Positions 570 through 56,132 of a DNA stretch of 64,000 nucleotides are shown one piece after another. The stretch spans positions 72,726,001-72,790,000 of the forward strand of contig OZ024746.1 of assembly GCA_964016885.1 (NCBI GenBank), read 5' to 3'. The notes below the pieces were generated by a model. The model saw only the letters and a program-made list of their open reading frames with translations, was not told the DNA's origin and did no database searches. A program made the translations under genes and the position numbers. Source of the DNA: Eledone cirrhosa. Taxonomy: Eukaryota. The first letter of the stretch is position 1, and every line of letters starts with the position of its first letter.

Positions 570-917
570 GTAAAGTTATATTTAAAATTGTTGGGTTACA
601 ACTAGTAAATATTTATAACTGATATAAAAGCACTCGACAAATATTTGGAGTATATTTACAATATTAAATAAATGGAAAACTATATTTATAAAACCATATC
701 TATTTCATTATATATATTTCGGGGATATCATATTAACAATATGCTATGCCTTCATCAGACAAAATACAATATAAACAGTTTTATAAACAGTCTATAAAAC
801 TGTTTATATTGTATTTTGTCTGATGAAGGCATAGCATATTGTTAATATGATATCCCCGAAATATATATAATGAAATAGATATGGTTTTATAAATATAGTT
901 TTCCATTTATTTAATAT

Positions 918-921
<4 letters not shown>
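570..921 (-). mobile_element. Penelope-like fold-back element, family A copy 1 (palindrome plus tail, hammerhead in each arm)
   Basis: Near-perfect inverted repeat 657-785/793-921 centred on 789, unique tail 570-656, flanked by (TA)n on both sides. Related copies at 14501-14910 and 34276-34382. Confidence 0.8.
810..880 (+). ncRNA. Minimal type I hammerhead ribozyme (mirror copy on the minus strand at about 698-768)
   Basis: CTGATGA 820-826, imperfect stem II hairpin, GAAA 858-861, palindromic stem III TATATA, AUA cleavage triplet ending at 869. Downstream ATGAAATA pairs with upstream TATTTTGT (stem I, with G-U pairs). Confidence 0.75.
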
Positions 922-984
<63 letters not shown>

Positions 985-1310
985 ATGTGTTGAGGTGTCA
1001 ATACATATCTAATATGTATGATCATGTTTCTCAAAAACTCAAGGGATCTTGGTTCAGAGTGTTAATTATTGTTCAAATTTAAAAGATACATGTAGAGAAA
1101 GAGTCATATATTGTTTGAGAAACGTACCATTTGTACATGTACATGTATAGAGAGATCAAATAATATTCAGGAAAATGGTAAAAAGGTCGATGATTGTTTT
1201 ATCATCTTAAAGTATGTATATTTTCCTAAATATTATTTGATGTCTCTCTTTCTCTCTCGAGGTGTACAAAATGCTGTTTCTCAAACGATATATGACTTTC
1301 TCTCTATAAA
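985..1310 (-). mobile_element. Degenerate Penelope-like fold-back element
   Basis: Imperfect inverted repeat about 1093-1177/1219-1307, tail 985-1092 containing an ACTC...GAGT hairpin (1037-1060), flanked by (CA)n/(TA)n. The hammerhead core is decayed. Confidence 0.55.
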
Positions 1311-1332
1311 TTTATATTATATATATATATAT

Positions 1333-1516
1333 AGAAGTGGTTACACAACAGTTAGTTCACCATACCGAGAACAATTGTTTCACCTTAGCGGATCCTCAGC
1401 TCGTAATGGACCATTACGAGCTGAGGATCAGCTAAGGTGAAACAATTGTTTTCTACCTCATCCCATGGACTGAGTGCTCTACCACTACGGATATTACCTT
1501 CCAGTGTTCTACCACT
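1333..1516 (+). mobile_element. Short fold-back hammerhead element (family B)
   Basis: Palindrome 1370-1409/1411-1450. CTGAGGA (1421-1427), short stem II, then GAAACAATTG in both arms. The minus-strand copy has stem I CCATTACGAG/CTCGGTATGG. The tail contains TGAGTGCT, and the element is flanked by (TA)n. Confidence 0.7.
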
Positions 1517-2422
1517 ATATATATATTTATACACACACGTTTAGTAAAGAGTAAAAATTTACAGGAAAAAAAACAAAAACCCTATTACATTTATATATCC
1601 GTAATATCAAATGTTTATTAGGGATTTATAACACCAAAATATCCATAAAATTTGGCTACGAATTTGATATTCAGATACTAGCTTAAGAACATTATCAAGA
1701 TGACTCCTAATTAGTAATTATCCTTGCACTAATTAATTCTCATATACGAAAGGAATATAGCATATTACCAGTAACCATTTGGTTCCAGTAGTTAACTACT
1801 GCATTTTTATTTTTATTAAATAGACTGGAATGAAAATAGGATGTGATGATGGTCATACTTTTCTGTGAAATAAAATCGACGTGCAAAATCCACATCTACA
1901 AGAAATATATACCAAATCACTCCATACTGCGTTTAAATTGGGGACTGAATTTTAGCCCTTCCGTTACTATTTAAGTCTATTCAGAGCTGACGTACAATGG
2001 GGAACCTTTACGTGGTTGTAACTCGACTTGCTAGAAGTAGCAGCCAAATTCTCTTAAACCACACACCCTAAAAGTGACATTAAACCTTTTGCTAAAGCAA
2101 GGTACTGCCTATGATTTTCAAATCATTCTGAAAACTTTCAGGAATTTGGAGAAATCTAGTGATACAATCTATGTTCCAAACAGAAACTTAGCTAATAAAG
2201 GTTCTTACATAAAATTACGATAAATATAAGCACTTTAAAATAGTTTTCTATCATAGAATCAAGGATGGTTTGATAACAAAATGATTTTTTCAAAGTATCA
2301 CTGATAATAGATCTTGAGTTAAGGAAACGAAAATATCCCGTCCGATTTATGAGCCATTTTGCATGCACACACTCGTTCAAAATTAGGGAATCCTATATAT
2401 ATATATATATACACACACATAT

Positions 2423-2712
2423 ATAATCATGTTCCACAAAATAGAAAATATATTCTAAGTTTAATCGTGGATTCGGAGTTGAATAGGAGCTAGTACGTGA
2501 GTGTGTGTGTATATAATCATGTTCCACAAAATAGAATATATTATATACATATATATAAGTTTAATCATGCATTCAGAGTTGAATAGGAGCTAGTACGTGT
2601 GTGTGCGTGTGTATATATATATATATAATCATGTTCCACAAAATATATATATGTATATAAATATATTCTAAGTTTAATCATGGATTCGGAGTAGAATAGG
2701 AGCTAGTACGTG
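2423..2712. repeat. Three tandem copies of a 75-90 bp unit separated by (TG)n(TA)n
   Basis: ATAATCATGTTCCACAAAA...GAATAGGAGCTAGTACGTG at about 2423, 2513 and 2625. Confidence 0.85.
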
Positions 2713-2713
2713 A

Positions 2714-2744
<31 letters not shown>

Positions 2745-7701: not shown

Positions 7702-7732
<31 letters not shown>

Positions 7733-7749
7733 CATATACACACACACAC

Positions 7750-7781
<32 letters not shown>

Positions 7782-10284: not shown

Positions 10285-11178
10285 TTAACGCCTATAACCT
10301 CCCCCTCCCATACCACCACCACCACTGCCACCTTTACCGTAACCTCCACCGTAAGGACCACCAGTATTACGATGCGAAAAATTACCTTGTCTCTGGGCCC
10401 CACCGAAAGATCCGCTGCCATAATTGGATCCGAACCCGTTACCGTAGCCACTGTTGTAATCGTTGTTTCCGTAGCGGCCATCGCTGCCTTGGTAATATCC
10501 GCCGCCGTTGTTGTAACCACCACCCTGGCTCGATCCCCAGCTGCTGCCTCCGTAACCGCCGCCTCCACCGCCACCGGCGCGGCCGCCGCCTGGACGACCT
10601 CCGGGACCCCCACGACTGCCTACTTCGGTCTTCGATACAGCTTTCTTAACTTCGATGCTTTTCTCCCCTAAAGGAAACCTCTTCCTAATCACACACTTGT
10701 CTACACAGTCGAAATCATCAAAGGTTACAAAGCAGAAACGCTTCTGCTTACCAGTTGCCTTGTCCTTTATCATCTCCACTTTCTCGACTCTACCGTACGG
10801 GCTGAACAGATCACGGATTTCATCTTCAGTTGTTGTCTCCTCCAAGCCACCGACGAACATTTTCTTCACGGACGCCTGAGTCTCTTCCGATCCATCGCGA
10901 GGCATGGCGCGCTTCGTGTCTAAAGTCTTCTTGTCAAGCATGTGCGGTCGTTGCGACTGTGCCTTGTCTAGTTGTGCTGCCGACTGATAAGTGACAAAAC
11001 CGAAGCCACGGGAGCGGTTGCTTGATGGATTTTTCATTACCACGCAGTCCACCACTTCTCCCCATGTTTCGAAGTATTGGCGAAGAATATCTTCCGTCGT
11101 TTCATTATTCAGACCTCCTATGAAGAGCTTTCGGTATTTCTCAGCGTTGGGATCGTCGTTGCAGTAATTACTCATCAT
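10285..11178 (-). CDS. Heterogeneous nuclear ribonucleoprotein A1/A2/A3-like (hnRNP A/B family), intronless CDS, 297 aa
   Basis: RRM1 (RKLFIGGL, RSRGFGFVTY), RRM2 (KKMFVGGL, KRFCFVTFDDFD), EVKKA, and a Gly/Tyr/Asn-rich C-terminus with GGPYGGGY. First ATG at 11178 (MMSNYC), TAA at 10285-10287. The longer ORF-track start is not an ATG. Confidence 0.95.
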   Translation of the reverse strand: MMSNYCNDDPNAEKYRKLFIGGLNNETTEDILRQYFETWGEVVDCVVMKNPSSNRSRGFGFVTYQSAAQLDKAQSQRPHMLDKKTLDTKRAMPRDGSEETQASVKKMFVGGLEETTTEDEIRDLFSPYGRVEKVEMIKDKATGKQKRFCFVTFDDFDCVDKCVIRKRFPLGEKSIEVKKAVSKTEVGSRGGPGGRPGGGRAGGGGGGGYGGSSWGSSQGGGYNNGGGYYQGSDGRYGNNDYNSGYGNGFGSNYGSGSFGGAQRQGNFSHRNTGGPYGGGYGKGGSGGGGMGGGGYRR

Positions 11179-11667
11179 TTTGAATTTTGATTGTAATAAC
11201 TTTTCTTCAACAATGGAATATGGTTGAAATTCAACTTTGATGACGGAGTTTACAAAATTAAATATATATTTTCCTTTCTTCTTCAGCAATGTTATATTTG
11301 TTGACAGGAGGGTAACTATCAGTTGAGAAAATAAAAATCCACAGCGAATTTTCAAATTACAAATGAAGTATCCTTTATGGCTTGCTTGCTTCCGTAGCAG
11401 CAGAACAAGAAAAGCTAGTCAAAGCGAAAGATACGATTACTTTTTATCCTCTTCATTGTTCGTTGTATATTTTTTACTACCTGGAGACGTTTTGTAAATT
11501 TCCAACAGCTACAAAAAGAAACTAAGCTAATAATATTTTTTCTTTGCTCATTAATTAATTTTTTAAATTGATTTCGAATTTAATAAAATTACGAAAATGT
11601 AGGTCGTGATTAAAACACTAAATGACAATTTAAATAATCGCTGAACCACATGGTATGCAATGGAGCC

Positions 11668-11681: not shown

Positions 11682-13144
11682 TAAACAGCTCTGACCTCAC
11701 CTCCGAAGAAAACTTGATAAATGTGGAATATATTTTTTTTATAGATACGAAGGAAATGTTCGTTAATTTTTGTGGAAATTCTTTATCTCTCCCTAATTTC
11801 TTGATAGATAAGAGAGAAAAAAAAATAAATGGTGAGAACGACAGAAATAATTTTAATGGCCACTGGAGACGATGACTAAGATTGTCTAACTGAATGCTAC
11901 TTATTTTTCGAGTTCAAATCCAGCCCGAGTTAGCTTTTTCCCAGGTGACAAAATAAGTATCCCATTATATACTATTGTCGAGGCAATCGATTACACCTCA
12001 CTTCTATTCAGAATGTGAATACAGTGTTGGCCGAAAAATCACCATTTATATAATAAATATGATTTACAAAAGAAATAAAAATTTTATTAAAAATAAACGG
12101 GAGAAAACATCACACCACGACAGAAATGCTGATGGTTACCTCTAAATTTTTTTGAGGCAAGCCATAAGGCATAGGAATACGCAAACACCGACACGAACAT
12201 CACCTTATACTTCAGTAAGACAAGCCGCCAACAATGACAAAAATTTCGTTGTTAGCAGCTCCCAAGTGTATCCAAATTCACAGCGTAAAAAATGTAGATT
12301 ACCGATAAATCACAGTATCTCAGAAGTTTATTCTGTTTAGCTAGGGATGTATTGGCCTAAACAGTATCTTGAACGTATTCATTACGATCCTTATCATTAT
12401 GAGTTCAAATCCTGCTAGTGTCTAGTTTCCTTTTCATTCTGCTGGAGTCAATAAAATAAATAGCCAAACGTGTAATTTAACAACATTGAAGTATCGTTTC
12501 TAAGCGCTCTGAAAAAAGTACAAACGTTAGATTTTCTCCTTTCATAAATTTAGAACTGTCCATCTATCTCCAGTCAAATCTGATTACCTTTATATATGTA
12601 TGTATGTGTATGTTTTTTATATATGTATGCATGTGTATGTTTATACAGATAAGCATGGGTTTTCCGGCAACCTATTTAAAATATCAGCCAAATTTCCATC
12701 AAACCAAAAAAGAGTAAATAATGTGGTCATTCATACACAATCTGAAAGAAATACACGGAATTGTCATGGAGTGATAAATAAGAGATGACATGAGGGTTAA
12801 ACAACTCTTAGTTCAGTTTAAGAAATAGCAGTTAAATGTCTCTTGAATCATAAAAAATGCAAGGGTACAGGGATGGTCACAATAAAATGTATTCATCATA
12901 GTTCTACTCCCGGGACTGAACTGAAATTGAGAAAGAACAACAATGGTACATTTACAGTCAACTCAACAGGGTAAAAATAGCAGCGAAATTTCTCTTAGAT
13001 CTCACCCTGCTATCATCAAGAAGAAAGAAAATGCTGGATGGTATAGTCATACATAGGCTGTTAATAAAAATGGAATGGGCACCACTGAAACACCTTTCAT
13101 CATAGGTATATTCGATCAGAGCTAACCTAGGGTTAAGTTATATA

Positions 13145-13800
13145 TAATAGGATAAAGTAGTATAGTTAATGTGAAGCACTGTGAGATATATAATAAAAAC
13201 CCAATAAGTTTCAAAAAGCTGGTACAATGCGGTAGAAATATATAAAGGGCAAAGGAAGACAAATAAAACAAAGTAATGTTTTACCCAATAAAATTCAACA
13301 TGATATTTCAGGGTTAAACCCTCTTTTCAGGGTTAAACCAGAAATGGTTCAAAACAAACACAAACAATTGGTGTTCTTCCTTAACTGCTCAATGTGTCTG
13401 AAATACCCGTATGAAGTCGTTATAGTAGCCAATCTGCATTGTGCATTTCCAATCTGTTATTTATATGGGTTTTTTTTTCTGGTTGATGATAATGGCCTTT
13501 TTGATCCTTAAATTGCCAACAGTCCTTTCCATTGCCTCTGTGGTGACTTCAATGTCATGGCTGCAGCATGTCAAGATGTTTTTTAACAGAAGTTCTCGTC
13601 ATCATGTACTCCGTAATCCATATGTGCAGCATCAGGATGGTACTTCTGATGTATGAGGAGCTACATTTTTACATGTGACCTTGTAGACCATATACACTTT
13701 CATGCACACTTTGTTTTTTGTTTTATTTGTCATATTTTGCCCTTTATATAGTTATACTGCATTGTACTGGCTTTTTGAAATTTATCGGCCTTTTATCATA
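13145..13800 (-). mobile_element. 5'-truncated Penelope-like retroelement with GIY-YIG remnant, hammerhead and inverted partial pLTR
   Basis: Minus strand 13700-13455 reads (frameshifted) VYKVTCK..SSYIRSTI..LHI..KHL..NLRIKKAIII..KP.INNR, the PLE GIY-YIG signature. Hammerhead-like CTGAAAA-GAGGGTTTAACCCT-GAAA at about 13337-13294. Inverted repeat of about 85 bp at 13189-13273/13710-13800. (TA)n flanks. Confidence 0.8.
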
Positions 13801-13881
13801 TATATAATAGGAATTTAGATCGATATAATGGTAGATGTATAGAAGCCTCTGCAATGTATGTATGTGTGTATATATATATAT

Positions 13882-14219
13882 AAAATTTAGCATGACAAAG
13901 TTTCACATAAATGTTTTTATTATCAACCAATTACGTAGGTTTCACAGATGATTGGCTCAATGTCCATGTTAGATGTGCTTAATATGTAATTTGGTTTCAG
14001 CTGAATCATCCTGCCTGATCAATCCTGGAGTCGGGTCTATAAAATCAACATGGACCGTGAGCCATTCATCTGTGAAATATGTGTAATTGGTTGATAATCA
14101 ATAAAACATTCATGTGAAACTTCATCATATTAAACATATATATACACTCTGCTTTAGCATCAAGTGCTTGTATTAATACTACCTCCAGTAATCCACAAAA
14201 TTATTAAATAACTTAAACT
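13882..14219 (+). mobile_element. Penelope-like fold-back element, family E
   Basis: Imperfect inverted repeat about 13883-13970/14046-14135, decayed hammerhead (GAGCCATTCATCTGTGAAATATGTGTA), tail with CACT...AAGTGCT. A second partial copy lies at about 18995-19135. Confidence 0.6.
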
Positions 14220-14232
14220 ATATATATATATA

Positions 14233-14486
14233 TAGAAATTATATAGAAGACTCCAAACCTCGGAAGAAACAATTGTAAGCGAATAAATGATTTGAACAGA
14301 ACTTTGATTCATGTAATTTCTATATAACTGGTCTGTAGAACAACTGATGTTATTACATTGAGCTATTTATCTTACTGGTAATAAGGTAGTAATAAATTAC
14401 TGTCTTTCACTGTTTAGGGTTTAAAATATATATAACTATAAAAGGTTTTAGTATATACATAACCATAAATAGTATCCTTAATACTA
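14233..14486 (+). mobile_element. Penelope-like pLTR fragment, family F copy 1
   Basis: About 250 bp nearly identical to 49877-50121, with a truncated hammerhead (GAAGACTCCAAACC...GAAACAATTGTAAGC) and (TA)n flanks. Confidence 0.7.
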
Positions 14487-14500: not shown

Positions 14501-14910
14501 TATACGATATTAACAAATGGAAACTATATTTATAAAACCATATCTATTTTATTATACATATTTCAAGGATACCATGTTAAATTATGGTATGCTTTCCTCA
14601 GACAAAATACAATATATACCAGTTTTATAAATAAATATTGACATACCCTTTCAAAAGTAACAGTAGCATTTTGAAAGGGTATGTCAATATATATTTATAA
14701 AACTGGTATATATTGTATTTTGTCTGAGGAAAGCATACCATAATTTAACATGGTATCCTTGAAATATGTATAATAAAATAGATATGGTTTTATAAATATA
14801 GTTTCCATTTGTTAATATCGTATATTTACTCCAAATACTTGTCGAGTGATTTATATCAGTTATAAAAATATTTGCTTGTTGTATCCCAACAATTTAAATA
14901 GAACTTTTGC
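14501..14910 (+). mobile_element. Penelope-like fold-back element, family A copy 2
   Basis: Near-perfect inverted repeat 14501-14656/14669-14824, tail to 14910. Hammerhead CTGAGGA 14724-14730, stem II ATACCAT/ATGGTAT, GAAA 14761-14764, mirrored on the minus strand. (TA)n flanks. Confidence 0.85.
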
Positions 14911-14932
14911 ATATATATATATATATATATAT

Positions 14933-15716: not shown

Positions 15717-16056
15717 ATGGAGGCACATGGCTTAGTGGTTAGAGCATTGGCCTTGCAATCGAAAGGTTGTGAGTTCAATTCTCAGACCGGGTGATGTGTT
15801 GTTTCCTTGAGCAAGACACTTTATTTCACATTGCTCCAGTTTACTCAGCTGTAGAAATGAGATGATAGGGACTGGGGTCCCTATCATTCCACTGCAAAGT
15901 GGAGGTGCCACGACAAAAAAGCACCCAGCACTCACTATAAATGAGGTTGGTGTTAGGAAGGGCATCCAGCTGTAGAAATCAAGCCAGAATCAGTTCCCGT
16001 CCCACCCTTGCAAGCAGGGAAGAAGCGGACGTAAAATGAAATGATGATGATGAAAT
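15717..16056 (+). mobile_element. tRNA-derived CORE-type SINE with RTE-like tail
   Basis: A box TGGCTTAGTGG, B box GAGTTCAATTC, CORE-like CCTTGAGCAAGACACTT...CTGTAGAAATG, 3' end shared with the neighbouring RTE LINE, (GAT)n tail. Confidence 0.9.
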
Positions 16057-16059
16057 GAT

Positions 16060-16403
16060 CATTCATCATCATCATTTCATTTTACGTCCGCTTTTTCCCT
16101 GCTTGCAAGGGTGGGACGGGAACTGATTCTGGCTTGATTTCTACAGCTGGATGCCCTTCCTAACACCAACCTCATTTACAGTGAGTGCTGGGTGCTTTTT
16201 TGCCGTGGCACCACCACGACCACTTTGCAGTGGAATGATATGGACCCAGTCCCTATCATCTCATTTCTACAGCTGAGTAAACTGGAGCAATGTGAAATAA
16301 AGTGTCTTGCTCAAGGAAACAACACATCACCCGGTCTGAGAATTGAACTCACAACCTTTCGATTGCAAGGCCAATGCTCTAACCACTAAGCTATGTGCCT
16401 CCA
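16060..16403 (-). mobile_element. Same SINE family, inverted tail-to-tail copy
   Basis: Reverse complement of 15717-16056 with only a few differences. Confidence 0.9.
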
Positions 16404-16409
16404 TAAGGA

Positions 16410-17208: not shown

Positions 17209-18468
17209 TGGAAGCATGGACTAGAATCAAAAGGCCTTAAAATTAACTTGTCTAAGACTAAAGTTCTAGTATGTAGGAAGGTAAATAGGGCACTGGTCCC
17301 CTCTGGGAAATGGCCATGCTCAGTGTGTAGGAAAGGAGTAGACAGAAACTCCATTTTATATCCCAAATGCAAAGTATGAGTGCATAAAAGATGTAGAGGG
17401 ATAACAGGTAAGCTAACTAAGAACATAGATTTTATATGTGGCCGGTGCTCAGGTGCAATAAGTAGTAGCAAGTGCCCACAGGATACTAGCTCCTTCCATT
17501 GCCCAGATGGTTCTATAGAAATAGTGGACACCCTCCGTTACCTGGGTGACAAAATCAGCAGTGGCGAAGGGTGCTCTGAATTTACAGTAGCCAGAATCAG
17601 AACGAGATGGAAAAAGTTCAGAGAGCTTATACCACTATTGGCTGCTAAAGGTTTCTCTCTAAAAATGTATGATGCCTGCATATGAACAGCAATGTTACAT
17701 GGCAGTGAGACATGGGCATTGTGTGCAGAGGATCTGCGCAGACTGAAGAGGAACGAAGCTTGCATGCTCCGTTGGATGTGTAATAGTAATATACGTGAAC
17801 GGCAAAGCATAAATGAACTAAGTGAGAAATTAGGAATAAGAGGGATCAGATGCTGTTTACTCGAGAGAAGACTATGTTGATATGGTCACGTGATGCGCAT
17901 GAAAGACAACAGCTATATAAAAAAGTGCAGGGTGATCAAAATAGATGCAACCTACGGAGTAGGCAGACCCAGAGAAACCTGGGACACCTTGATAAATTCC
18001 GACCTTACACACTTACTCCAAGACAATGTCACTGGACCGAGATCTTTGGCGCTATGCAGTAATACAGAAGACCCACTTTGCCTAAGTACAAAGCGAAACC
18101 TACAGTCCATAGGCACCTCTTAACAAAAATACACCCCCGTCCCACTACCCCCACTTCATCCACACCACCTCTTTCGATGTAAAGTTATGTTGGTACCACA
18201 ACATCCAGTCCGAAATAAATGAGGTCGTGTAGGTGTCACGACAAAAAAACACACAGGCCACGCTGTAATGTGGCCGTGTAGGTAACACGGTAAAAACCTC
18301 CCAGTCTACACTGTAAACGTGGTTGGTGTTAGGAAGGGCATCCAGCCATAGAAAACCTGCCAGACAGTCCTATACGAGCAAGACAACTAATCTTGCCTCA
18401 CGTGGGACAATTCCCGTCTAAACCCATGCTAGCGTGGAAGATAGACGTTAAACGATGATGATGATGAT
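17209..18468 (+). mobile_element. RTE-clade LINE, degenerate 3' part with 3'UTR
   Basis: WKHGLESKGLKINLSKTK, WPCSVCRKGV, MLHGSETW, GRPRETW, several stops, (GAT)n tail. Confidence 0.9.
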
Positions 18469-18979
18469 ATAAAAATAACAAAATAAGATGCTGAGGTTAC
18501 ATAAATCATTTAATCATTATAATTATTTCCACGATTCTCCATGCAATCGAGAAGTCTTTCATGCATTTGTTGTTGTTATGAGAACGATATTCTCAGATGA
18601 TATCCGATTTATTTGATATGCCGCCGGCAGGAAAAAACGTCCTATTGCTTGTGTGCCCAGCAGACATATGCGGTGTACTCGGCAGACATATGTCTGCCGG
18701 TCACACGAGCAATAGGACATGTGTTTTTTACTGCCGGCGGAATATCAAATAAATCGGATATCATCTGAGAATACCGTTCTCATAACAACAACAAATGCAT
18801 GTAGAACTTCTCGATTACATGGAGAACTGTGGAAATAATTAAAAGGATTAAACGATTTATGTAACCTCAGCATCTTATTTTGTTATTTTTATAAAAATCT
18901 CCATCGTAACTAAAAACTGCGATTGTTGAGAGCTTTCTCCTGCTTGCTCCCGTTTTTACCAAAACAATCTCTTCTGAAC
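18469..18979 (+). mobile_element. Large fold-back element with tail (family H)
   Basis: Inverted repeat about 18469-18670/18688-18893 (about 200-bp arms, some mismatches), 85-bp tail with CTC...GAGAGCT, ending in (TA)n. No canonical hammerhead core was seen. Confidence 0.65.
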
Positions 18980-19989
18980 ATATATATATATATAAGGGAT
19001 CTTGAGCCAATCATCTGTGAAACATACGTAACAGGTTGATAATCAATAAAACATGTTAACAAAACTGTTTTTTCTTAATACATACACTCTACCTGTGCAT
19101 TGAATGCTCCTATTGGTATCACCGCCAAAAAATCATAGAATCATCATCATCATCACTGTTTAATGTCCATTTTTCCATGCTTGCATGGGTCAAACAAGTC
19201 ATCCACATTGAGAGACAAGTTTGGCCAGGATTGGCCACACCATACTTTGCTCTGACGAGCCTAAATTTGGCTGTGGTTTTTACAGCTGGATACCATTCGT
19301 AATACCAATCATCATCATCCTCATTTAAAATCTGTTTTCCATACTAGTAAGGATTGGATGGGTCTTCACAGGCCAAATCAGTACTCAAGCAGGGCGATTG
19401 ACCTCTCATTTGGGTCAGGAACCTGCATCTTGTCTACATACAATTCCACACTCTACTGAAGGCATTTTATCATGATACCAACACTAAGGAGGTTGTTATT
19501 TCTTTGACACAGCTAAAGGGTCCTCCTGTCCCTTTGTTTGGCAGGTTTTCTATGACAAGATACCTTTGATACAACTGAAGAGTCCTTCCGACTCTTTGTT
19601 TGGCAAGGTTTCTATGGTTAGATGCCCTTCCCATCACCAACCACCTTACAGCATGTTCAGGGTGCATTTATCATGAAGATCACTAACAATAGAGAAGTTG
19701 ATGTGGTGTTGGTACAACTGAAGTATCTTCTCAACTCTTATTGGCATGGTTTCAACAGCCGGGTCTAACCACCTTATAGGGTGTACTGGGTAAATTTTTC
19801 ATGGCACCAGCACTAGAGAGATTGTAGGTCATTTTGTGATGTGCTGAAAAGAAAGATAAGTATGATGTTATGTGTATATGACAAGTGTGGTAGGATCTGG
19901 CAAGATGATGAATAGGAGGGAAGGGTAGTCTTCTAGTAGTATGATGTGGGGTACACACTAATGTGTCAGAATTTTAAAGAGGGGTATAG

Positions 19990-30257: not shown

Positions 30258-30563
30258 GAGAAATGATTTTTTAAGTGAATTTTATTAACTGCTGACTGCC
30301 GATACACACAGAGACCAGTTTGCTTCAAATTATCTTTTAAAATCATTATTCGTTGATATACAGATTGGTTTAATATACAAACACACACATATACTTATAT
30401 ATATTTATACATACAGACTCTCGGGTCTTGAATAATCGTCCCCGCTACTGCTTATTCATTTTTCAGATTTCTAACCCCTCTGCTCTTATTCCAACCCCCC
30501 ACTGCTTATTAAATTTTGCTAATCTATCTACGGCAACAGTTTATTTTAATTGGTAGCACTTCT

Positions 30564-30636
30564 TCCTTGTGCAGGGGCCATGCTAAACTTCTCTGTATCG
30601 TTCCAATTTTAGAATATGTACTGCTGTAGCAGGATA
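30564..30636 (-). pseudogene. U6 snRNA pseudogene, 3'-truncated (about nt 1-73)
   Basis: Minus strand GCAGTACATATTCTAAAATTGGAACGATACAGAGAAGTTTAGCATGGCCCCTGCACAAGGA matches U6, including the ACAGAGA box and AGC triad. Similarity stops after CAAGGA. Confidence 0.92.
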
Positions 30637-33372: not shown

Positions 33373-34275
33373 TATATACATATATATAAAAATATATATA
33401 TAGAGAGGTTTAATATAGAAAAGGCTTCTACATGACTAGAACCGTATATACAAGGTAGGTGTCATGACAAAAAGCACCCAGTACACAGTAAATGTGGTTG
33501 GCGTTAGGAAGCACACCCAGTCGTAGAAACCAAGCCAAAATTAGTTCTTAATGAGCAAGACGTGGTCATATTACCTGGCTTATCTCACGAGACAACTCGT
33601 CTAACGTGGAAAAATGGACTTTAAACGGTGATAATGATATATATATATATATCCTGATTTAATAACCAAGCTTATACATACACAAACACACATAGGTACC
33701 ATCTGAATAAAATCAAGTACCCTTTATACATAATGTATTGAGTCTAAAAGTTTGTATTGAGCGGCGGCTCGGGGTTTATTCCAGTTTTAAGTGACTGAGA
33801 GATGACACACACCCTGAACAGGGTTAAACTCCCAACTATTGCAAATACTCATTTTCAGCTGAGTATGCTGGAGCAACGTGAAATGTTTTTTTTAAACCCA
33901 CGGCATTATGATCGTGTTTCTTACTACTAGGCCACGCACATGTGTGGATTTGCGGTTTCGTTCAGCTTTTTAACGGAAGACAATTGAACTACACGTACAT
34001 ATATATATATATATATATATATTATTTAACGTGAGAAATTCAAATACTACTCTTTTTTTTTTATCTCGTAAAGGAAGTCGGTGATTGAGTGACTTGAGAG
34101 AAGTAGACGTAAAGGCGGGAGACGGCATTGTTATCAAGCAAGATAATTGTGGAAGGAGGAAGAATAAGACAAAGAGAGAGAGAACAAGGACAGGAAATAG
34201 GACAAAAGCGAAATAGCGGGATGGTCTGACGAAGTTCAGATATATAAATCTATTCAAGTACACACACATATATAT

Positions 34276-34382
34276 ATACGATATTAACAAATGGAAACTA
34301 TATTTATTTCAGTTGAGTGCTTTATATCAGTTATTAAAATATTTGCTTGTTGTATCCCAACAATTTAAATAGAACTTTTGCA
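34276..34382 (+). mobile_element. Family A fold-back element, collapsed copy
   Basis: First 30 bp of the left arm (TATACGATATTAACAAATGGAAACTATATTTAT) joined directly to the tail (GAGTGCTTTATATCAG...GAACTTTTGCA). Confidence 0.8.
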
Positions 34383-35944
34383 TATATATATATATATAAA
34401 TATATATAGAGAGAGAGCTATGCTTTCTGTGTTTGTGTTTTTGAACTATATAGGAAGGGGAAAAGTAGTTTGAAGGAAAAAAAACTTAAGAGAGGAGTAG
34501 TATGAGTGCAAGAGAGAACAAAGATAAAGAGGGAGAGAAGAAAAAAAAAATGGTTGTAGATATTTATTTAGAACATGTGATAGTGGTGAGTGGCAGGAAG
34601 AGAAGAAAACAGGAGAAAGAAGCAGCACGTGATTAGGTAGAGTTGTAAGAGAAAGGAAAAGACTAAACAAAGAGAAAGACAGCCAAGGAATATAGAGAGG
34701 CGATATCTCGGGTAGCGTTAAATAAATGTGTGCTTGTGTATCATTCTTACAAGGTGTATGTGTGCGCTTATGTATAATTCTCATGCGTTTGTATGTGTGA
34801 AATTGTTTCTTGTGCATATTTGAAAAAATGAAATAAAATCGACCAGAAAATCAAACAAAATTTTTTTAAAGATTTTAATTCAAGAAAAGAAAGAATGGTT
34901 AAAGAAACCAAACCCAAACCCTTATATGACAATGTAATTATAGAAACATTTTGAAAGGAAGTGCCAAAACTCGTCACACTGTCAAATACTCCAACACGAC
35001 ATTATTTTGACAGTCAATACATCGTTACTATAAATTAAGCGGGGCAATCCTATAGGATCGAGTCGTAAAACCCATTTCTTCCTATAATTTTGTGCACATA
35101 GGATTGGAAAACACCAACCCTTGTAAATAAACCCTACAGTGAATTTACGGTGACAGTATGTCTAGTTTCATATTTACGTTAACACGAAGTAAAAATGTAT
35201 TTCGTTAATTTGTAGATCGGAAGCTAAATTAACCCACTATTGTCATTTCACTTAATTTCAACGTACACATAACGAAAGAATGCCTACTCCCCAACCCTTC
35301 CACAAGCTTGCAATCCTCGGATGCCATTATTTACATTTATATTATAACGGCAGTTCTTTTAGATAGCCTTCGATGATGGAATCGAGCAGGAAATCATAGC
35401 ACCACTAACCGTAAAAAAGCGAAGCCGTTGTCCTAAAATCCAGCCCCCCCTTTCGCCCTAATTTACGATATAGTGCCAACCTAATCAGTCTTGCCACAAA
35501 CATGGGGCTGGTCACACGCAACGGAAGATGATTAAATACCAGGCATTATTGGCCGTCTCCTTTTTTTGTGTTGGTCACCATTGAGACCTCTGGTGTGCTC
35601 GGTCCGGACTGCCGTTTTCCTCTGCTAAATCGACATTGACATCGTGGCTGAAGAAAGAACTCACAACTGGTGAAATAGCGGATGCAGCGAGTTTCGCTGT
35701 CTGTTCTTAACAATGCTTTCTTTCAGTCCTGTCCGCGGGGTGCATCTGAGATATACCAATGGGTGTAGAGTTTTCTCTCTCTTTTTTAAAAATTCGTTTT
35801 GTCATTAAGAACTGACTGTAAAAAACTAAAAATTACGACACTGAAAACAGCCTTAACCCTATTGGTCGTGGTGAAGAGAAGAATAATCAATGCAATGCTG
35901 GTAGTAGTAATAGTAGCAGCAGCAACATTATTACTGCATTCAAG

Positions 35945-36545: not shown

Positions 36546-37330
36546 ATATAATATGCAGACAAATGAAAGAATAAAACATTTATTATAATCGAGATTTGTT
36601 AACAAATGGTATCAAAGATCCCTTGTGATTCTTTTAACTGAAACAGCAACAATATAATATCTTTCTCTCTACACTTCGAATGACAATATTTTGATTTTTT
36701 TTTAAATTTCAAACCGTAAACTACACACACACATCGTCATCATTATCATCGCTTTTACGTTCTCTTTTTCACACATCCATATATATATATATGTTTATTT
36801 TTAGAATAAGTACTCTATGTTGAAAAGGGCGACTAAAAGGAAAAGCGTTCGGCCGTAAAGCTCTATCTCAATTTGTCCTGTCCTATCGAAAGCAACATGG
36901 ACAGCGGTCGTAAAAACGGTAATACATATGTATGTGCGTGTGCATCGACTCTATATTATATAATCATACTCTAGTGAATCCATCCTGATTTATATATATA
37001 TATATAAAACGAAGGAAGTGTGGTAAGGAACCAGATCGACCATAACGCACCAGAGTACTCAATACTTAGGGTAGTAGAGTGGGTAATAGGAAAATTTCTG
37101 AGACCAGAAATAGCCGTCGGGGTCTTGAACATTTTCCCATATAGATACACACACACACACACACACATACTAATTTTATGTGCGTGTGTGTGTCTTTCTA
37201 TCACTTTTTACGGCCCCCGCTTCTTTCTCTCTATATTATACATTCGAGATAACATTTTACACGTTTTTATTGTATGTAAACTTCCCCCGTTGTATTTGTC
37301 CCCCTGTGGCTAATAAAGAAACATATATTA

Positions 37331-45953: not shown

Positions 45954-47624
45954 CTGAAGGAAGACAGAGTTTGGTCATTCAGTGTCTACAATTGAAAAAT
46001 ATTTTTTTACTATTGCTATAACTGATTACGATGTTTGGACAGCATATACACTACAAAACATTTTAAAACTCTCTCTCTCTCTAACTGATTTCAGTCTTTG
46101 GACTGTCAACACACTGGGGCACCACATTCAAAAGTTTTTACTTAATTATATCTCCATTGCCAAAGTACTTAGTACATGGTAAACAAGTACATAAGGATAT
46201 GTAGTTACTGCATCAAATGACATATCGTATTTTTTAGTTTTGATAAATGGTCCAGTAGTTTGATTAATGGAACAGCCTTAATGAAAATTAACATGTAAGT
46301 AACTGAGCATTCCACAGACACGTGTACTCTTAATGAGATTTGGCATGACAGTTTTTGACAAGGCTGTCCTTTTGATTTATAAGCACTGTCCATCCAATGG
46401 TCTTCCAAACAGTTTCCATCATTTAATATAAGTTTGCATGGGTTAGATGGGTTGTCATGTACGAGACAAGTCAGGTCAGGTGACAATGTCTTGATCACAT
46501 GGATCTGTATTTTGGCATGGTTTCTATAGCTGGATGCCTTTCCTAACACCAACTATGTTACTGCGTGGACTGAGTGCCTTTTATTGTGGCACCAAAACAA
46601 CCACTTTACAGGATGGACTGAGCGTATTTTGTCGTGTCACCAGCACGACCACCTCACCTTACAGGATGGACTGACACTCTTTATTTTCTCACCGGCAAAA
46701 CCATTCATTCATAAGATGTGGGTCAATCTAAAGCCATGGTAAATGACACACACACAAGATTCATTGCAGTGGAATCAAACCCAGAACTTTTATAATTGCA
46801 AAGTAAACATCTCAATCATTTGACCTTGCTGCATTCATCCCATGTCATCATCATCATCACCATCGTTTAATGCAACTTTACAGCATGTATTGAGTGCATT
46901 TATTGTGTTTATAACCAACACTAGGGAGGCTGTATATGTGTGTGTGGGTATGCATGCATGCTCTTGTGTTTATATATACTCTGATATACAAACTGGTGTT
47001 GTTTATGTTGCATCCCAGTAGTTTGACAAACAGAGATTGATAATATAAGTTCTGAGGTTGACTAAACAGTTGAAGGTAGTGCCCCAGCATGACTGTTTCC
47101 CAATGACTAAGACCAATAAAAGAATATATACATACACAGACATGTTATTTTCATTCCATGAGGTCTTACCATAATTTCTAAAGCGTTCTTGAAATAACAT
47201 ATCCACATTCTATGGGGCCACATCTGATGCTGTCAATTGCCTCACTAGTCATTATCATCATGTTTGTTGTTTAACGTTCGTTTTCCCTGTTAGCGAAGGT
47301 TGGACTAGTCACCTTAGTTATTTAAAAAAACACACCTTTAAGACTCTTATATAGATGTTGCTAAGTACATCAATGTTTTGGAGGAACGTCAAAGATTAGA
47401 GTTCTCTCCCTTGCAGCGGGACATGGCTTCAAGTGTAATAAAAAGTTAGTTTGACAGCTTTAAAACAGTTTTTAAAAAATATTTTCCAACCACATGTTCG
47501 AAAATCCATTGTTTAAAACCGTATAAGATACAGAGCCCACTTAACACATGGGTACAAAATCAAATATATCTGTATATATATAAACACAAACAAACACATA
47601 TAAACATGTATGTAATGTATGTAT

Positions 47625-48010
47625 AAATATGAAGATATGGTTCTACTTTCCATACTAATTTATTGAATCAAAAGTGTTTTGTACATTTTAACAGTGTCAG
47701 ATGACTGTTACATAAGAATAACTTGAATTGGACCTGTCTTCATCAGGCGTGTCTGACTGAAATTATTCTTACATAACAATTGCCTGGCACCTCTAAAATG
47801 TACATAATAGTTGTATTCAATAAACTGAAATATGGAAAAGTAGAACCATGTCTTCATGTCTATTAACATACCAATACTCCATCGCGTAATAGTCTACATG
47901 ATCCCAGATAAATACAACTGATGTGGAGTGTTTAAGGCTGATTACACTATAGTTTGTTGATTGCTATAATAAAATGTAAAAGTAACAATCACTTAAAATT
48001 AAGACAACGA
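47625..48010 (+). mobile_element. Degenerate Penelope-like fold-back element (family J)
   Basis: Imperfect inverted repeat about 47626-47722/47760-47862, CTGATGA on the minus strand near the centre, tail with ACTCCA...TGGAGT, TA-rich flanks. Confidence 0.6.
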
Positions 48011-49440: not shown

Positions 49441-49504
49441 AAACATACATATACAGACATGCAAGCAGGGAAAATGGAGGGTAAATGATGATGATGATAT
49501 ATAT

Positions 49505-50121
49505 TTATAGAAATTATATAGAAATACAACCCCCATAATAATCTTGATTGCCCGCTTAAAGTGCTTGTATTACATATAACACCCTGCCGCACTATAATCT
49601 TATATAAACTAGACACATGTGCATGCCCCATGTGTAACTATTGCATACACTAACTACTTCAAACTATCCTCTTGCTTTATCTTCGTAAACTGCCAATGTT
49701 GTATTTTAACTTTAATTTTGTTCTTTGATATGACTTTAACCTTTGAATGTAAATTGCCATGCTAAATATTATAATGGATGTCAACCCACTGTGCATCAAT
49801 ATATACATATGTTTCTGTATGTCTCTTGTGTTGAAAAGGAGGTCATGTATGTAAATAACCATTGAAAAATTGCTCCGAAGACTCCAAACCTCGGTTTGGA
49901 AGAAACAATTGTAAGCGAATAAATGGTTTAAACAGAACTTTGATTCATGTAATTTCTATATAACTGCTCTGTAGAACAACTGATGTTATTACATTGAGCT
50001 ATTTATCTTACCGGTAATAAGGTAGTAATATATTACTGTCTTTCACTATTTAGGTTTAAAATATATATAACTATAAAAGGTTTTAGTATATAAATAACCA
50101 TAAATAGTATCCTTAATACTA
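49505..50121 (+). mobile_element. Penelope-like pLTR, family F copy 2, with hammerhead at about 49868-49920
   Basis: Stem I ATTGCT/AGC(G)AAT, core CCGAAGA (U4C variant), stem II TCCAAACC/GGTTTGGA, GAAAC-AATT-GTA, tail GCTC...GAGC hairpin, (TA)n flanks. Confidence 0.75.
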
Positions 50122-50781
50122 TATATATATTTATGTGTATCATCATCACCATTATCATTTACTTTTCCTTGCTTGCAAGGGTGGAACAGTTCTTCTTCAG
50201 CACAGCATCTCCCCATTCGTCACAGTCCTTCATCATCTCCTCTGTGAGCTTCAGCGATCTGAAGTCAGATCTCACCACCTCTGCCCATGTTTTTCATGGT
50301 CTTCCTGTACTCCATCTTCCTTTCTCCGGCACTTATTCACCATACCAACACAGTCTTCTCTCCTGCACACTACAGTTTATTCTTCTTATACACAGTTTCA
50401 CTCTCAAGTTGTCCATGCTTGATCATTCACGCACATTGACATTGCACATCCATCGAAGTATGATTGCTTCATTGCTTCATGGGTTGACCAATGCTTTGTA
50501 AGTGAAATTTAGTAGACAGTAACTGTGTAGAAGCTCATTAGCAATATGTGTATATATCCCTGTCTGTGTTTACATTTATTATTTGTTTATGTTTTGTAAC
50601 TTTTATTGTTTGACTAAAAAGAAATTGATAAAATAAGTACCATACTTAAAAAAATAAGTACTTGCGTCAGTATGATTAACTAAATGCCTTCATGACAGTG
50701 TCCTATTCTAATGACTGAAACGTAGTAAAATAATATATGTATAAACACACATACTTAATAGTCAGAAATACACATAGTTAC

Positions 50782-50846
50782 CTGTTAGTCTGGGTAGAAT
50801 GACACTGGAATGATTCAATCATGTCAGAGTCTCGGGGGAAGTCAGA
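50782..50846 (-). CDS. RAD1: RAD1 exon
   Basis: ttccag|TCT GAC...AAC AG|gtaact gives SDFPRDSDMIESFQCHSTQTN(R). 65 bp; phases match both neighbours. Confidence 0.92.
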
Positions 50847-52439: not shown

Positions 52440-55400
52440 TCTCCTGAGATGCTATAAGCCATGATGGCTACCTATCTCACAATTTACCTCCCCCGCACAA
52501 CCTATTCGACCAATCAAACCTCAGCAACCCCCCCCCCCCCCCCCACACCCATTATCAATCCCAACAAACTCTGCCATTACTACTACTACTACCTTGCTCC
52601 TTGCCCTTCCCAGCCCAACAAACCCTGCCATTATTACCACTACTGTTCTTCTAGCCCTGAATTCTCTTACCGTTATGTATGGATGAGCTGAGGATAAATG
52701 GAGCAGCCCCGAATTAATAAATGAATATGAATCCGCGAGTTACCAAGCACCCATGTGAAGCTTTAATTCAGAGACAGGAAGCATACACACACACCCGCAA
52801 AAATTTACCCTTTCCCACGAATGTTGGCAAATGCCCAAAACTCCGAGTTGGAACCATCAATGTAAGCACAATGAAAGGAAGAGCAGGAGAAATCGTAGAG
52901 ATGCTAGAGCGAAAGGAAATTGATGTATGCTGTGTGCAAGAGACTAAATGGAGAGTCTGCTAGAGTCCTTGTAGGCAAAAGTCAGTGCTACAAATTTTTC
53001 TGGGTGGGAAATGACAATGGGATGGGTGGTGTAGGTATCCTACTAGCTGACAAATGGGTAGATAAGGTAATCTCAGTGAACAGGATAAATGCAAGAATCA
53101 TTAAACTCAGACTAGCCCTGAATAAAACAATTACTACAATAATATCAACTTAGGCACCCCAATCGAGGTTGCCAGACGAACTTAAGGATAGGTTTCACGA
53201 GTCCCTAATGCACACTACTGCCCTAACAAACAACAATGACTTCCTAATCATTGCAGGAGATTTTAACGGACACATAGGTAAACACCATGACGACTTCTAT
53301 AGAGTCCATGGAGGCCACGTGTTTGGCACAAGAAATGAAGAAGTCTTCAGTCTTCTAGAATTCTGCGACGCCAATGACATGTCGATATGTAACAGAAACT
53401 TCAAAAAATCCGTCAACCATCTGATCACCTATAGATCAGGGGAGCATTCTAGTCAGATAGATTTTATCCTCATCAGAGGATGTGACAGATGGACAGTCGT
53501 AAACACAAAAGCCTTCCCTAGTGAGGAATGTACCTCCCAACATAACTTAGTTATCAGTGACCTCACGGTCAGAACTAGACGAACTTGGAAACAGAAGGCA
53601 ACCTGGAGAAAAAAGATCTGGAAGCTGAGTGACTCCTCAGCCAGTAACATATTTAAAGATATTTTACTCGACGCCTATGACAGTAAAGAAGAACAGATAG
53701 AGACATTCAATGTAGAAGAGCACTGGGAGTTCCTAAAAAATAACTTAGTAAAGGTGACGGATGAGATCTGTAGTTGGAGCAAAACTTGGTGGTGGAACAA
53801 TAAGGTAGATGAGGCAGTTAAGGCTAAGAGACAGGCATGGAAAGAATGGAAGAACGGGGGAAGCAGGGTACGTTACATAGAGACCAGGAGGGAAGCTAGG
53901 CGACAAGTATACTTAGCTAGAAGGGAAGCGCAGGATAGAAAATTCAAGCATGTCTTGCAACGTGAGGACCAGAAACAGGAGGTTTTCAAGATTGTGAGGC
54001 AGTGTGTCAGAGAGAATTGTGATGTCATTGGAGAGAAGTGTATCAGGAATGATCAGTGCTGAGAAGAAAGATGCGTGGAAGAGCCATTATGAAAGATTAC
54101 TAAATGAGGATAATGCATGGGAAGAAGAAACCCTACCCCTAGTAGACCCTATAGAGGGGCCAGCAGTACATGTCATCAGCAGCGTAGTAAGTAAGGCAAT
54201 CAAAGATATGAAGACGGGGAAGGCAACCGATCCATCGGGTATAGCTGCCGAGATGCTGAAGGCATCTGGGTTGGTAGGTCACACCATAACCACACATATT
54301 GTTAACCAGGTAATACTAGAAGGTGTCATACCAAAGGATTGGTGCAACAGCATTATTGTCAACTGCTACCAGGGTAAAGGTGATGCACTAGATAGAGGAA
54401 ACTATAGAGGTATAAAGCTGATTGACCAGGTCATGAAAGTAACAGAAAGAGTTATAGCACAGTTGATTAGGGACCGGGTGAAACTAGATGAGATGCAATT
54501 TGGGTTTGTGCCAGGAAACGGCACCACTGATGCCCTCTTCCTTGAGAGGCAGTTACAGGAAAAGTACCTAGCTAAAAGTAAGCCGCTCTACCTGGCATTC
54601 GTCGATCTGGAGAAAGCCTTTGACAGAGTTCCCCGTGCTATAATATGGTGGGCTCTTAGAAAACTAGGAGTAGATGAATGGCTTGTGAAAGCTGTAGAAG
54701 CCATGTATAGATGGAAGAAGTTGAGGGAGCTACTGCCACTGCTAGCTGCAAAAGGCTTTTCACTCAAAATGAAAGGTATGATGCGTGTATACGAACAACA
54801 ATGTTACAGGGTAGTGGAGACCTAGGCGCTGTCTGTAGAAGACTTGTGTAGTAGAAAGAAACGAAGCCTGCATGCTCCGATGGATATGTAATAGTAATAT
54901 ACGCGAACCGCAAAGCATAAACGAATTGAGAGAGAGACTGAGCATAAGAGGAATCAAATGCTATGTGCAGGAGGGGCGGTTGCGTTGGTATGGACTTGTG
55001 ATGCGTATGAAGGATGACAGCTGCATAAAAAGATAAAAAGGTGCAGAGCACTAGAAGTCGATGGAAGCTGTAGAGTGGGGAGACCCAAGAAGACCTGGGA
55101 TGAGGTGATAAAAGCCGACCTTACCCAATTACACCTCTCAAAGGCAATGACACACGACCGTGACCTCTGGCGTCACGCAGTAATACAGAAGACCCGAAGC
55201 CCCACAGGTACAAGCCGAAGCTGAAGCATATAGACAATATGCCCCCACCCCCTCCCACTGCAAAGTGGTCGTGGAGGTGCCACAGCAAAAAAGCACCCAT
55301 ATCACACAGTAAAGTGGACGTGTAGGCGCCACGGAAAAAAAGTACACAGCACTCACTGTAAATGAGGTTGGTGTTAGGAAGGGCATCCAGCTGTAGAAAT

Positions 55401-55515
55401 CAAGCCAGAATCAGTTTCCGTATGAGCAAGACAAGGTCAGCCGACCAGACACTGCCCACAACAGGATAACCAGTCTAACCCATGCTAGCGTGGAAGAACG
55501 GATGTAAAACGATAA
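52440..55515 (+). mobile_element. RTE LINE with both ends, internally deleted in RT
   Basis: 5'UTR, APE and RT N-terminus closely similar to 23350-25590. It jumps from VEAMYR to WKKLRELLPLL; the 3'UTR and tail are present. Confidence 0.95.
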
Positions 55516-55527
55516 TATTATTGGGCA

Positions 55528-55646
55528 CCCACTGAAGAATTATAAAAGCCCACTTGAATAACTGTTGATCTTATACATGCTTCTATATAATTTGGTATAA
55601 TTTCACCCAACTTGTAGAAATCTTATAATGAAACAAGTCGTCTGGG
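55528..55646 (+). ncRNA. Type I hammerhead with extended stem II, in a PLE-like remnant (about 55520-55830)
   Basis: Stem I CCCA/TGGG, CTGAAGA 55532-55538, stem II base ATTATAA/TTATAAT, GAAA 55630-55633, GUC triplet ending at 55642. Downstream ACTCA...TGAGT hairpin and (TA)n. Confidence 0.65.
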
Positions 55647-56132
55647 AAGAGATATATTTGATATATCTCATATGAAATGATACAGCCAATTTTCCACACA
55701 ATACAATTAGTTAGCACCCCGAACGTTTAATTAGGAATATACTCAGGTATTTCCTAATGTCTGTTGAGTGAGTTGGAATTTGGCCGGATTATCGCTATTA
55801 GCTTTCTCCGATTATGTATTTATATATTTGTATATATATATATATATACACATACAGGGTTTGTGGACATGTGTAAGTCACACCTCCATTTTTCATACAA
55901 CATTTACTATGTACCATATATTTTCTTTGTCCGGATAATTGTGTTAGACTGATTACTCCGACCTGCCTACCTCATTTTTCTCTGTTAAATTTAGAAGTTG
56001 GGAGTTAATAATGGTATATCTATAAATGAGTATGTGTGTTTAGACTATGGTAACAACTGAAAATTTGAAAATTGAATTAGAAACCTTCTTTGTACCTTGA
56101 CCACAGAAAATAAATGAAACTCCCAGACTTAC

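Follow-up and report, generated by a model that had tools for sequence, protein, structure and literature searches.

The window analysed here, a stretch of 64,000 nucleotides (nt) from Eledone cirrhosa (GenBank assembly GCA_964016885.1, contig OZ024746.1, forward-strand positions 72,726,001 to 72,790,000), is rich in short inverted repeats lying between (TA)n runs, several of which carry hammerhead cores on both arms. On their motifs, these repeats are assigned as short insertions of Penelope-like retrotransposons (PLEs) of the Hydra clade. Their families share a small hairpin closed by RCTC and GAGY. In full-length elements this hairpin is present twice between the hammerhead and the open reading frame (ORF), giving a leader with the order hammerhead, hairpin 1, hairpin 2, ATG. 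Insertions terminate, at the short-arm end and the tail end alike, 0-12 nt 5' of either hairpin 1 (site 1) or hairpin 2 (site 2); the PLE tail is therefore the stretch between the two sites, holding hairpin 1 only, and the second hairpin is normally left out of the insertion. It seems probable that this conserved, doubled RNA hairpin of the 5' leader anchors the reverse transcriptase (RT)-endonuclease, and that copying starts a few bases 5' of the hairpin.

A first-pass annotation of the window had pointed to a conserved stem, closed by ACTC and GAGT, just past the short arm in ten places, and the letters it quoted are present at all ten. The stem is real but larger than it was described to be. 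The full motif opens with RCTC, continues with a variable stem-loop and a 3'-side TY bulge, and closes with GAGY and then RC. Its lower stem (RCTC/GAGY) has 4 base pairs (bp), the bulge measures 1-3 nt and is usually the dinucleotide TY, and the upper stem is variable. Among 85 hairpins the bulge reads TT in 57, TC in 17 and TA in 9. The reported variability of the loop holds, with a GCTC-GAGC spacing from 8 to about 85 nt and variable inner letters. The distance to the terminal (TA)n is the proposed 40-80 nt in most families but about 120 nt in family F. Three sites quoted by their plus-strand letters (632-651, 1037-1060 and 37057-37080) belong to the minus strand because of the orientation of hammerheads and arms and the side of the bulge.

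The first example, A1 (564-921, minus strand), is a family A insertion between (TA)n runs, with head-to-head pseudo-long terminal repeat (pLTR) arms (inverted repeat 652-926) and a tail. Its ends, as read from the sequence, are of the site 1 type near 921 and the site 2 type near 564. A hammerhead core (CTGANGA...GAAA, a pattern match) lies at 717-758 (minus) on the tail-bearing arm and is mirrored at 820-861 (plus). Hairpin 1 (632-651, minus) pairs ACTC with GAGT, has a 4-bp upper stem and a TC bulge, is followed by GCT, and starts 5 nt 3' of site 1. The tail, from site 1 to site 2, spans 564-656 (minus), and in tandem copies hairpin 2 starts 3 nt beyond its end. A second head-to-head insertion, the family A-like A2 (14503-14911, plus; cores at 14724-14764, plus, and 14561-14601, minus), contains hairpin 1 at 14828-14847 (plus), recognised by its motif letters and by comparison with a covariance model.

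Other families are older or differ in their closing pairs. The hairpin at 1037-1060 (minus), from an old family with arms at 1093-1306, has an intact lower stem and TT bulge and a poor upper stem; a second copy (locus L176) retains ACTC...TTGAG. The family B insertion at 1333-1516 (plus; cores at 1421-1442, plus, and 1378-1399, minus), of the Hydra clade, bears a decayed hairpin 1 at 1456-1475 (plus), whose first pair is a C.T mismatch here and intact in other copies. Another of the proposed examples has also decayed: 14146-14165 (plus), directly after the inverted repeat 13873-14144, reads AAGT instead of GAGT. The compensated GCTC/GAGC version attributed to family F was found at 49966-49999 (plus); it is hairpin 1 of that family, and in tandem copies hairpin 2 and a Hydra-clade ORF lie beyond the tail end. 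A second family F copy (hairpin 1 at 14330-14363, plus) has one mismatch in the lower stem. At 18898-18931 (plus), 4 nt after the inverted repeat 18468-18893, the outer pair is compensated to TCTC/GAGA. This hairpin is also found in all 16 other anchor-matched loci (29 fetched), and one copy of the family (locus L401) adjoins a Hydra-type endonuclease remnant.

Three sites complete the set. Hairpin 1 of the very abundant family G is located at 37057-37080 (minus). An old-family, long-loop hairpin occupies 47876-47929 (plus), 4 nt after the inverted repeat 47617-47871; in 25 aligned copies both halves are visible in most, and the strict pattern matches the 5' half in 15/25 and the 3' half in 13/25. 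Hairpin 1 at 55741-55769 (plus) belongs to a family with tandem units of about 695 nt and no ORF match, in which a minimal hairpin 2 starts 3 nt beyond the tail end. An extra decayed candidate, absent from the earlier list, lies at 19086-19105 (plus), with no second copy among the fetched loci, and in a family A-like copy at 34271-34404 (plus) the inverted arm is fused straight to the 3' half of hairpin 1, the 5' half being lost. None of the 4227 Rfam models matched the ten hairpin sites at E-values up to 1, and Rfam models gave no score for the window hammerheads, whose cores were found by pattern.

Long copies of family B extend into an ORF encoding an RT with a GIY-YIG domain, whose motifs are those used to delimit the Hydra clade (Craig et al., 2021, PMC8557442), among them an RWK-type motif and DKT in place of DKG. 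RW[KR] and DK[TS] occur in 54/54 aligned proteins, including that of family B. Families A and F, in which RWR and DKT are present, also continue into Hydra-clade ORFs. The CxCX5C linker is found in 54/54 proteins; around the conserved E and N of the C-terminal GIY-YIG domain, CxxC..E occurs in 51/54 and N..CxH in 46/54. The link to a Hydra ORF is thus seen for families A, B and F and suggested for the 18898 family by locus L401; no linked Hydra-type ORF was found for the window families 1037, 14146, 37057, 47876 and 55741. Other Hydra traits are the hammerhead cores in the pLTR, found by pattern, and insertion into (TA)n with TA-flanked ends; inserted elements cluster side by side in these runs. 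Locus L171 is a complete pLTR-ORF-pLTR-tail copy whose tail is identical to the 5' leader after the first pLTR. The stretch behaves as a PLE tail is defined, being an optional one-end extension that matches the post-pLTR sequence of tandem copies and is bounded by two ends.

The family B protein gave 74,380 first-look candidates in this genome, and a query of 656 residues retrieved 1080 relatives. A C-terminal fragment searched among longer proteins found nothing, viral contigs held no relatives, Pfam had no family for four Hydra-type proteins, and a PDB sequence search returned nothing relevant. A DNA transposon or a Helentron or miniature inverted-repeat element (MITE) was rejected as the source of the repeats because of the hammerhead cores on the arms, the variable junctions and the RT-GIY-YIG ORFs in long copies. 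Family K (loci L051 and L052, 10846-12856; L049 and L050, 13320-13902) consists of retrozyme-like, hammerhead-bearing tandem units of 311 nt, with a tail of 36-40 nt and only a minimal hairpin-like motif.

The hairpin is conserved well beyond this genome. Relatives from marine metagenomes and contigs of metagenome-assembled genomes (MAGs), presumably host DNA, comprise 96 loci in 76 families clustered at 80% ORF identity, and counts were taken from families with at least 130 nt upstream of the ORF. The anchor GCTC-N6-40-GAGC-RC is present in 36/44 of these, with two copies in 21; it matched 0/44 on the reverse strand, 0/598 windows within ORFs and 34/8800 shuffles. Among the 8 anchor-negative families, 5 show variant hairpins by eye. 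Inspected in the same way, the published Hydra consensi contain a clear hairpin in 3/6 (Hydra-2_Amil, Hydra-1_Ajap, where it occurs twice, and Hydra-2_Ajap), a variant in Hydra-1_Crog and a weak one in Hydra-1_Amil. The consensi showing it come from coral, sea cucumber and copepod. Hydra-clade PLEs also sit in bacterial MAG contigs from marine animal hosts (loci L269-L286), most likely as host DNA in bins.

The comparison with tails of other taxa, proposed with the motif, thus extends it through Hydra-clade elements but not into other PLE clades. The hairpin is absent from the tail of one Neptune copy (a locating anchor, distinct from the hairpin motif, matched 1/30 Neptune loci, and the comparison covers the tail) and from that of the older, non-Hydra family at 13130-13830 of the window. 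Five 9-mers of the motif's 3' half gave 4 matches in the Hydra consensi and 3 in the much larger Naiad and Chlamys files, none in hairpin context. The motif therefore looks Hydra-specific, in a small sample, because the one Neptune copy and the 13130 family are without it. At 13130-13830 (minus) lies what remains of an old PLE: its C-terminal GIY-YIG domain is of a non-Hydra type, one arm is inverted and the hammerhead has decayed. Its family (loci L071-L100) has a short tail without the hairpin. A Neptune-type family (loci L332-L361; 33-nt tail without the hairpin) appears to have been active very recently, since more than 120 copies are identical over 184 residues and many frames of 784 residues persist.

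Paired positions of the hairpin covary across families, which identifies it as a conserved structured RNA element. Hairpins were picked by their invariant letters, with no structure used, and pairing is seen in a single register, which leaves 2 nt bulged on the 3' side. Watson-Crick pairing at the first three upper positions of hairpin 1 occurs in 98, 83 and 78% of families (n=41, 41 and 32), compared with 50, 32 and 30% in permuted controls, and the observed level was reached in 0/5000 permutations. The covariation check suggested for the motif gave the same answer: across 28 families with 11-16 inner bases, 94.6% of cells are paired versus 58.9% after shuffling (0/500), and their upper stem shows 31 double changes and a covariation of 0.80, compared with no more than 0.34 when the partners are slid. 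Changes in the lower stem are infrequent and come in pairs (ACTC/GAGT, TCTC/GAGA, GCAC/GTGC). Hairpin 2 is shorter, and its first upper pair is nearly fixed.

Taken singly, the motif is weak: 47/1878 random 130-nt windows match a loose descriptor (2.5%), and folding z-scores of 12 window sites range from an unremarkable -2.6 to +0.4. Its placement is what distinguishes it. Tails were selected without the motif, by an inverted repeat with (TA)n on one side, in arbitrarily chosen parts of the genome that total 800 kb. The strict version was found in 14/22 of these motif-blind tails, each time starting 0-9 nt from the arm end, which bears out the location just past the short arm and compares with 0/22 reverse complements and 55/6600 shuffles. 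The 22 tails are not independent, because they represent only about 10 families by eye (9 tails belong to family G). A covariance model trained solely on the 28 metagenome families placed 6 of the 10 sites in its top 8 window hits, on the predicted strand; the other 4 were absent from its 20 window hits. A microsatellite starts 20-130 nt downstream of 37/39 model hits (E up to 1, 900 kb), versus 951/5000 random positions (19%). In TA-adjacent windows the motif occurred in 6/45 with a nearby hammerhead and 31/614 without (reverse strand, 17/659), a split that tells little because many of these windows are tail-less site-1 ends or belong to other clades.

The doubling was predicted from the metagenome loci before the window families were searched for a second hairpin past the tail end. 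In 24 two-hairpin families the hairpins lie 55-83 nt apart, hairpin 2 precedes the ATG by 15-42 nt in 23, and the hammerhead precedes hairpin 1 by 42-67 nt in 21; in this genome the inter-hairpin spacing is 68-163 nt. For family A, GCTC occurs 8 nt after the pattern end at 99 genomic places (control, 0), and a full hairpin 2 is present in 30/30 fetched loci, followed about 22 nt later by a Hydra-type ORF in 27. In family F, hairpin 2 lies past the tail end in 50/53 matches, and family B has a long-loop hairpin 2, 5 nt past the tail end. The TA-flanked ends of family A comprise 33 at site 1, 29 at site 2 and 2 elsewhere (62/64 at the sites), and those of family B 26, 29 and 0 (55/55). Ends were typed within a window of -2 to 12 nt, as TA-like letters carry the family A alignment 1 nt into the hairpin. 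In the metagenome families a hairpin follows 18/28 ends at a distance of 0-13 nt. A/T accounts for 85-92% of the bases at positions -5 to -8 ahead of the hairpins, which would allow pairing with a nicked (TA)n strand. A chimera in another locus (L110, 4435-4468, minus) follows family G up to the 3' strand of hairpin 1 and then the family H tail, which suggests template switching at the hairpin.

Head-to-head insertions combine the two sites in a regular way. In families A and B, 27/27 join one site-1 end with one site-2 end (18/18 in sets not chosen by tail sequence); if each end were chosen independently and the two sites used about equally, chance would give this result for all 27 roughly once in 10^8. 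A further 9 pairs of this kind come from families G, H, F and N. In family K, nine typed site-1 plus site-1 pairs stem from tandem units and the two insertions join site 1 with site 2 by eye. One typed site-2 plus site-2 pair is a copy in the window whose other end abuts a (CAT)n run. Arm junctions vary between copies, and no common span is shared by the insertions, which must therefore have formed one by one. The two arms of one family A insertion differ at 5/1120 positions (0.45%) versus 4.3% between insertions, with 29 minor alleles shared and 5 unshared.

The covarying structure, its fixed place 3' of the ends and its conservation across animal phyla support the earlier suggestion of a cis signal for recognition or priming by the RT-endonuclease, and the positional evidence makes a role in RT binding or priming likely. 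The nearest biochemical precedent is a Poseidon-clade protein, which starts reverse transcription internally at two sites bracketing the tail and needs RNA 3' of the start (PMC11167929). The Poseidon_Ac protein extends both DNA strands and is predicted to form a dimer (Frangieh et al., 2024, PMC11167929). By analogy, two protein subunits would bind the two hairpins of one sense RNA, and their GIY-YIG domains would nick both strands of the (TA)n target. Each 3'-OH could then pair with the UA-rich RNA beside its hairpin and prime complementary DNA (cDNA), and the site-2 cDNA would displace the site-1 cDNA from the shared template. Two cut-short cDNAs joined end to end would give an inverted repeat with the tail on one arm only, and direct copies would use one site for cDNA synthesis.

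The predicted structure of the family B protein (predicted local distance difference test, pLDDT, 87) finds its best match in telomerase RT (6zd1; Z 15.1, root-mean-square deviation 4.4, 296 residues aligned, from residue 1). The alignment presumably covers part of the RNA-binding domain, and the match may serve as a lead for the place of hairpin binding, no more. A programmed two-strand integration is then conceivable, in which a dimeric, telomerase-like RT sits on one RNA via two hairpins of 25-30 nt, each fixing the start on one strand; it would explain both the tail and the head-to-head arms, and is offered tentatively, at rather less than even confidence.

Several results weigh against anchoring by the hairpins or against this mechanism. 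Structurally, hairpin 2 often has only 1-2 upper pairs (59% and 56% at pairs 2 and 3), RNAalifold recovered the invariant lower stem only, and the ratio of G-U to A-C counts, 5 to 2, barely favours RNA over single-stranded DNA. In family G, the commonest of the sample, three pattern searches found 0 second hairpins; incomplete assembly or a changed source copy could be responsible. Two family A ends fall inside the tail, 10/28 metagenome ends lie away from hairpins (mostly subfamily mismatches or non-TA breaks), locus L209 has a TA-flanked end at the hammerhead, and one family J copy ends just past hairpin 1. One family G pair joins site 1 with another end. Alleles are shared only weakly in family B, which is older (3.6% within and 5.3% between insertions), and sharing between arms could instead reflect one source locus or gene conversion. 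By eye, the hairpin is absent from the Hydra-1_Obim consensus, and the Poseidon stem-loop, as far as it is legible in the supplement of PMC11167929, is without this motif. Supplement 1 of the same paper, in which the letter order is uncertain, seems to show two short look-alike motifs in the Poseidon stem-loop RNA; they are separated by about 40 nt, which is as long as the tail in that clade.

Among other explanations, the hairpins might instead set RNA 3' ends by cleavage or termination just 5' of each, the RT then starting at a free RNA end as in R2 or LINE-1. This would equally explain the ends just 5' of each hairpin, and the RNAs do carry hammerhead cores. Those cores, however, are 42-67 nt upstream of hairpin 1, away from the ends, and two separately processed RNAs would not force the site-1 plus site-2 pairing seen in 27/27 insertions. 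The Poseidon protein, moreover, starts internally, although RNA-seq read ends are reported at its start sites (PMC11167929). This explanation is judged improbable, and yet survives better than any of the others.

Somewhat less probable still are two further proposals of equal standing. The motif could act as DNA, be it as an endonuclease recognition site, a basal promoter or a fold of single-stranded cDNA. The Drosophila virilis Penelope endonuclease needed tail DNA, as summarised in PMC11167929, a 34-bp repeat has been proposed as a basal promoter (PMC2377424), and the elements do cluster next to one another in (TA)n. Yet the targets consist simply of (TA)n, and hairpin 2, which marks where insertions end, is missing from most of them. 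Nor can a double-stranded site account for inner letters that covary across a GCTC-GAGC spacing anywhere between 8 and about 85 nt. Alternatively, the hairpins could serve translation or ribonucleoprotein packaging (cis preference, or cap-independent initiation after hammerhead cleavage), with UA-rich stretches alone setting the ends. Hairpin 2 does lie mostly 15-42 nt before the ATG and the bases 5' of both hairpins are A/T-rich; but the 55741 family, to which no ORF is matched, still has hairpin 1 and, 3 nt beyond its end, a minimal hairpin 2. In leaders that are A/T-rich over their whole length, moreover, the two sites take 117/119 TA-flanked ends of families A and B.

Self-priming on an antisense template, put forward in the discussion of PMC3846280, could also yield head-to-head copies, with the hairpins acting on that strand. 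This is very unlikely: different copies have different arm junctions, the template used in vitro is sense RNA (PMC11167929), and self-priming gives no reason for one site-1 and one site-2 end. That the stems are chance matches in A/T-rich sequence, as the background of the loose descriptor and the unremarkable single folds might suggest, is refuted by the positional and covariation controls and by the second-hairpin predictions borne out in families A and F, and hardly merits any credence.

The window contains several other features. An intron-less frame of 377 codons (10285-11418, minus) has two RRM-like parts and a Gly-rich end; it resembles an hnRNP A1-type protein and is probably a retrocopy. 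A match to U6 small nuclear RNA above the Rfam threshold (30535-30632, minus), with a divergent 3' end, is likely a pseudogene. Two tRNA-like short interspersed element (SINE) copies, head to head, form a near-perfect 690-nt fold-back at 15717-16404, and two open frames at 61335-62347 (plus) presumably represent a hAT-type transposase fragment.

Anchoring of the RT by a doubled hairpin addresses the questions of how PLEs choose their RNA and why the tail sits on one arm; one in vitro PLE system exists, with no binding motif defined in its text (PMC11167929). What is added here is a short, covarying, clade-wide element together with a quantitative rule, namely that ends lie 0-12 nt before a hairpin and mirror insertions have one of each. 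During annotation the hairpin may further serve to flag Hydra-clade elements and their non-coding passengers, very abundant in this genome. Should the two-strand mechanism hold, it would provide a portable minimal tag letting any RNA insert into (TA)n, and may reveal how RNA was anchored ancestrally, in a manner that PLEs have in common with telomerase. Because telomerase and the PLE RTs are sister groups, an RNA anchor in PLEs bears on the origin of telomerase RNA binding.

The first-pass annotation knew of no description of the motif, and none was found in the PLE literature searched, Repbase reports, subscription journals and figure images being outside its scope. The available parts of PMC8557442, PMC11167929, PMC4209133, PMC3846280, PMC2377424 and bioRxiv 10.64898/2026.07.22.740005 cover the PLE tail, not these hairpins. 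This is apparently a so far undescribed, doubled cis element of a known retrotransposon clade. The carriers resemble the Hydra-clade PLEs with C-terminal endonuclease in their protein motifs, hammerhead, (TA)n targets and length of about 2.5 kb; such elements occur in aquatic invertebrates including Octopus, and the available text describes no 5' leader hairpin; its consensus file does contain the hairpins, without annotation (Craig et al., 2021, PMC8557442). The two sites on either side of the tail recall the pair of start sites in Poseidon_Ac. In that element the tail measures 30-40 nt and lies inside the ORF, initiation occurs in an AC-rich stem-loop, and the accessible part of the paper defines no conserved binding motif (PMC11167929); here, by contrast, 55-160 nt of 5' leader make up the tail, and a separate copy of a conserved bulged hairpin accompanies each site. 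The 55741 family and family K are comparable to non-LTR retrozymes, that is, non-coding, hammerhead-bearing tandem units derived from PLE pLTRs, for which the parts consulted identify no trans-mobilisation signal (bioRxiv 10.64898/2026.07.22.740005; PMC4209133). The hairpins are a candidate for that signal.

Structured RNAs beside the start of copying recruit RTs in other systems. The R2 3' untranslated region, the 3' stem-loops of long interspersed elements (LINEs) and SINEs, and hepadnavirus epsilon each act once per RNA, and epsilon, itself a bulged stem-loop, templates a protein primer from its bulge. Unlike these signals, the Hydra element is doubled, and copying would start outside the hairpin on a nicked DNA target. 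The predicted family B protein aligns with telomerase RTs from residue 1, a likeness of the protein fold. In telomerase RNA the boundary element, where copying stops, is situated 5' of the template, whereas the Hydra hairpin lies 3' of the start. In LINE-1 twin priming, both target strands prime cDNA and an inversion results; the second primer acts internally, at positions that vary, and the inverted segment is not a repeat of the first. The insertions described here would likewise be primed from both target strands, but with both starts fixed and with arms that repeat the same pLTR.

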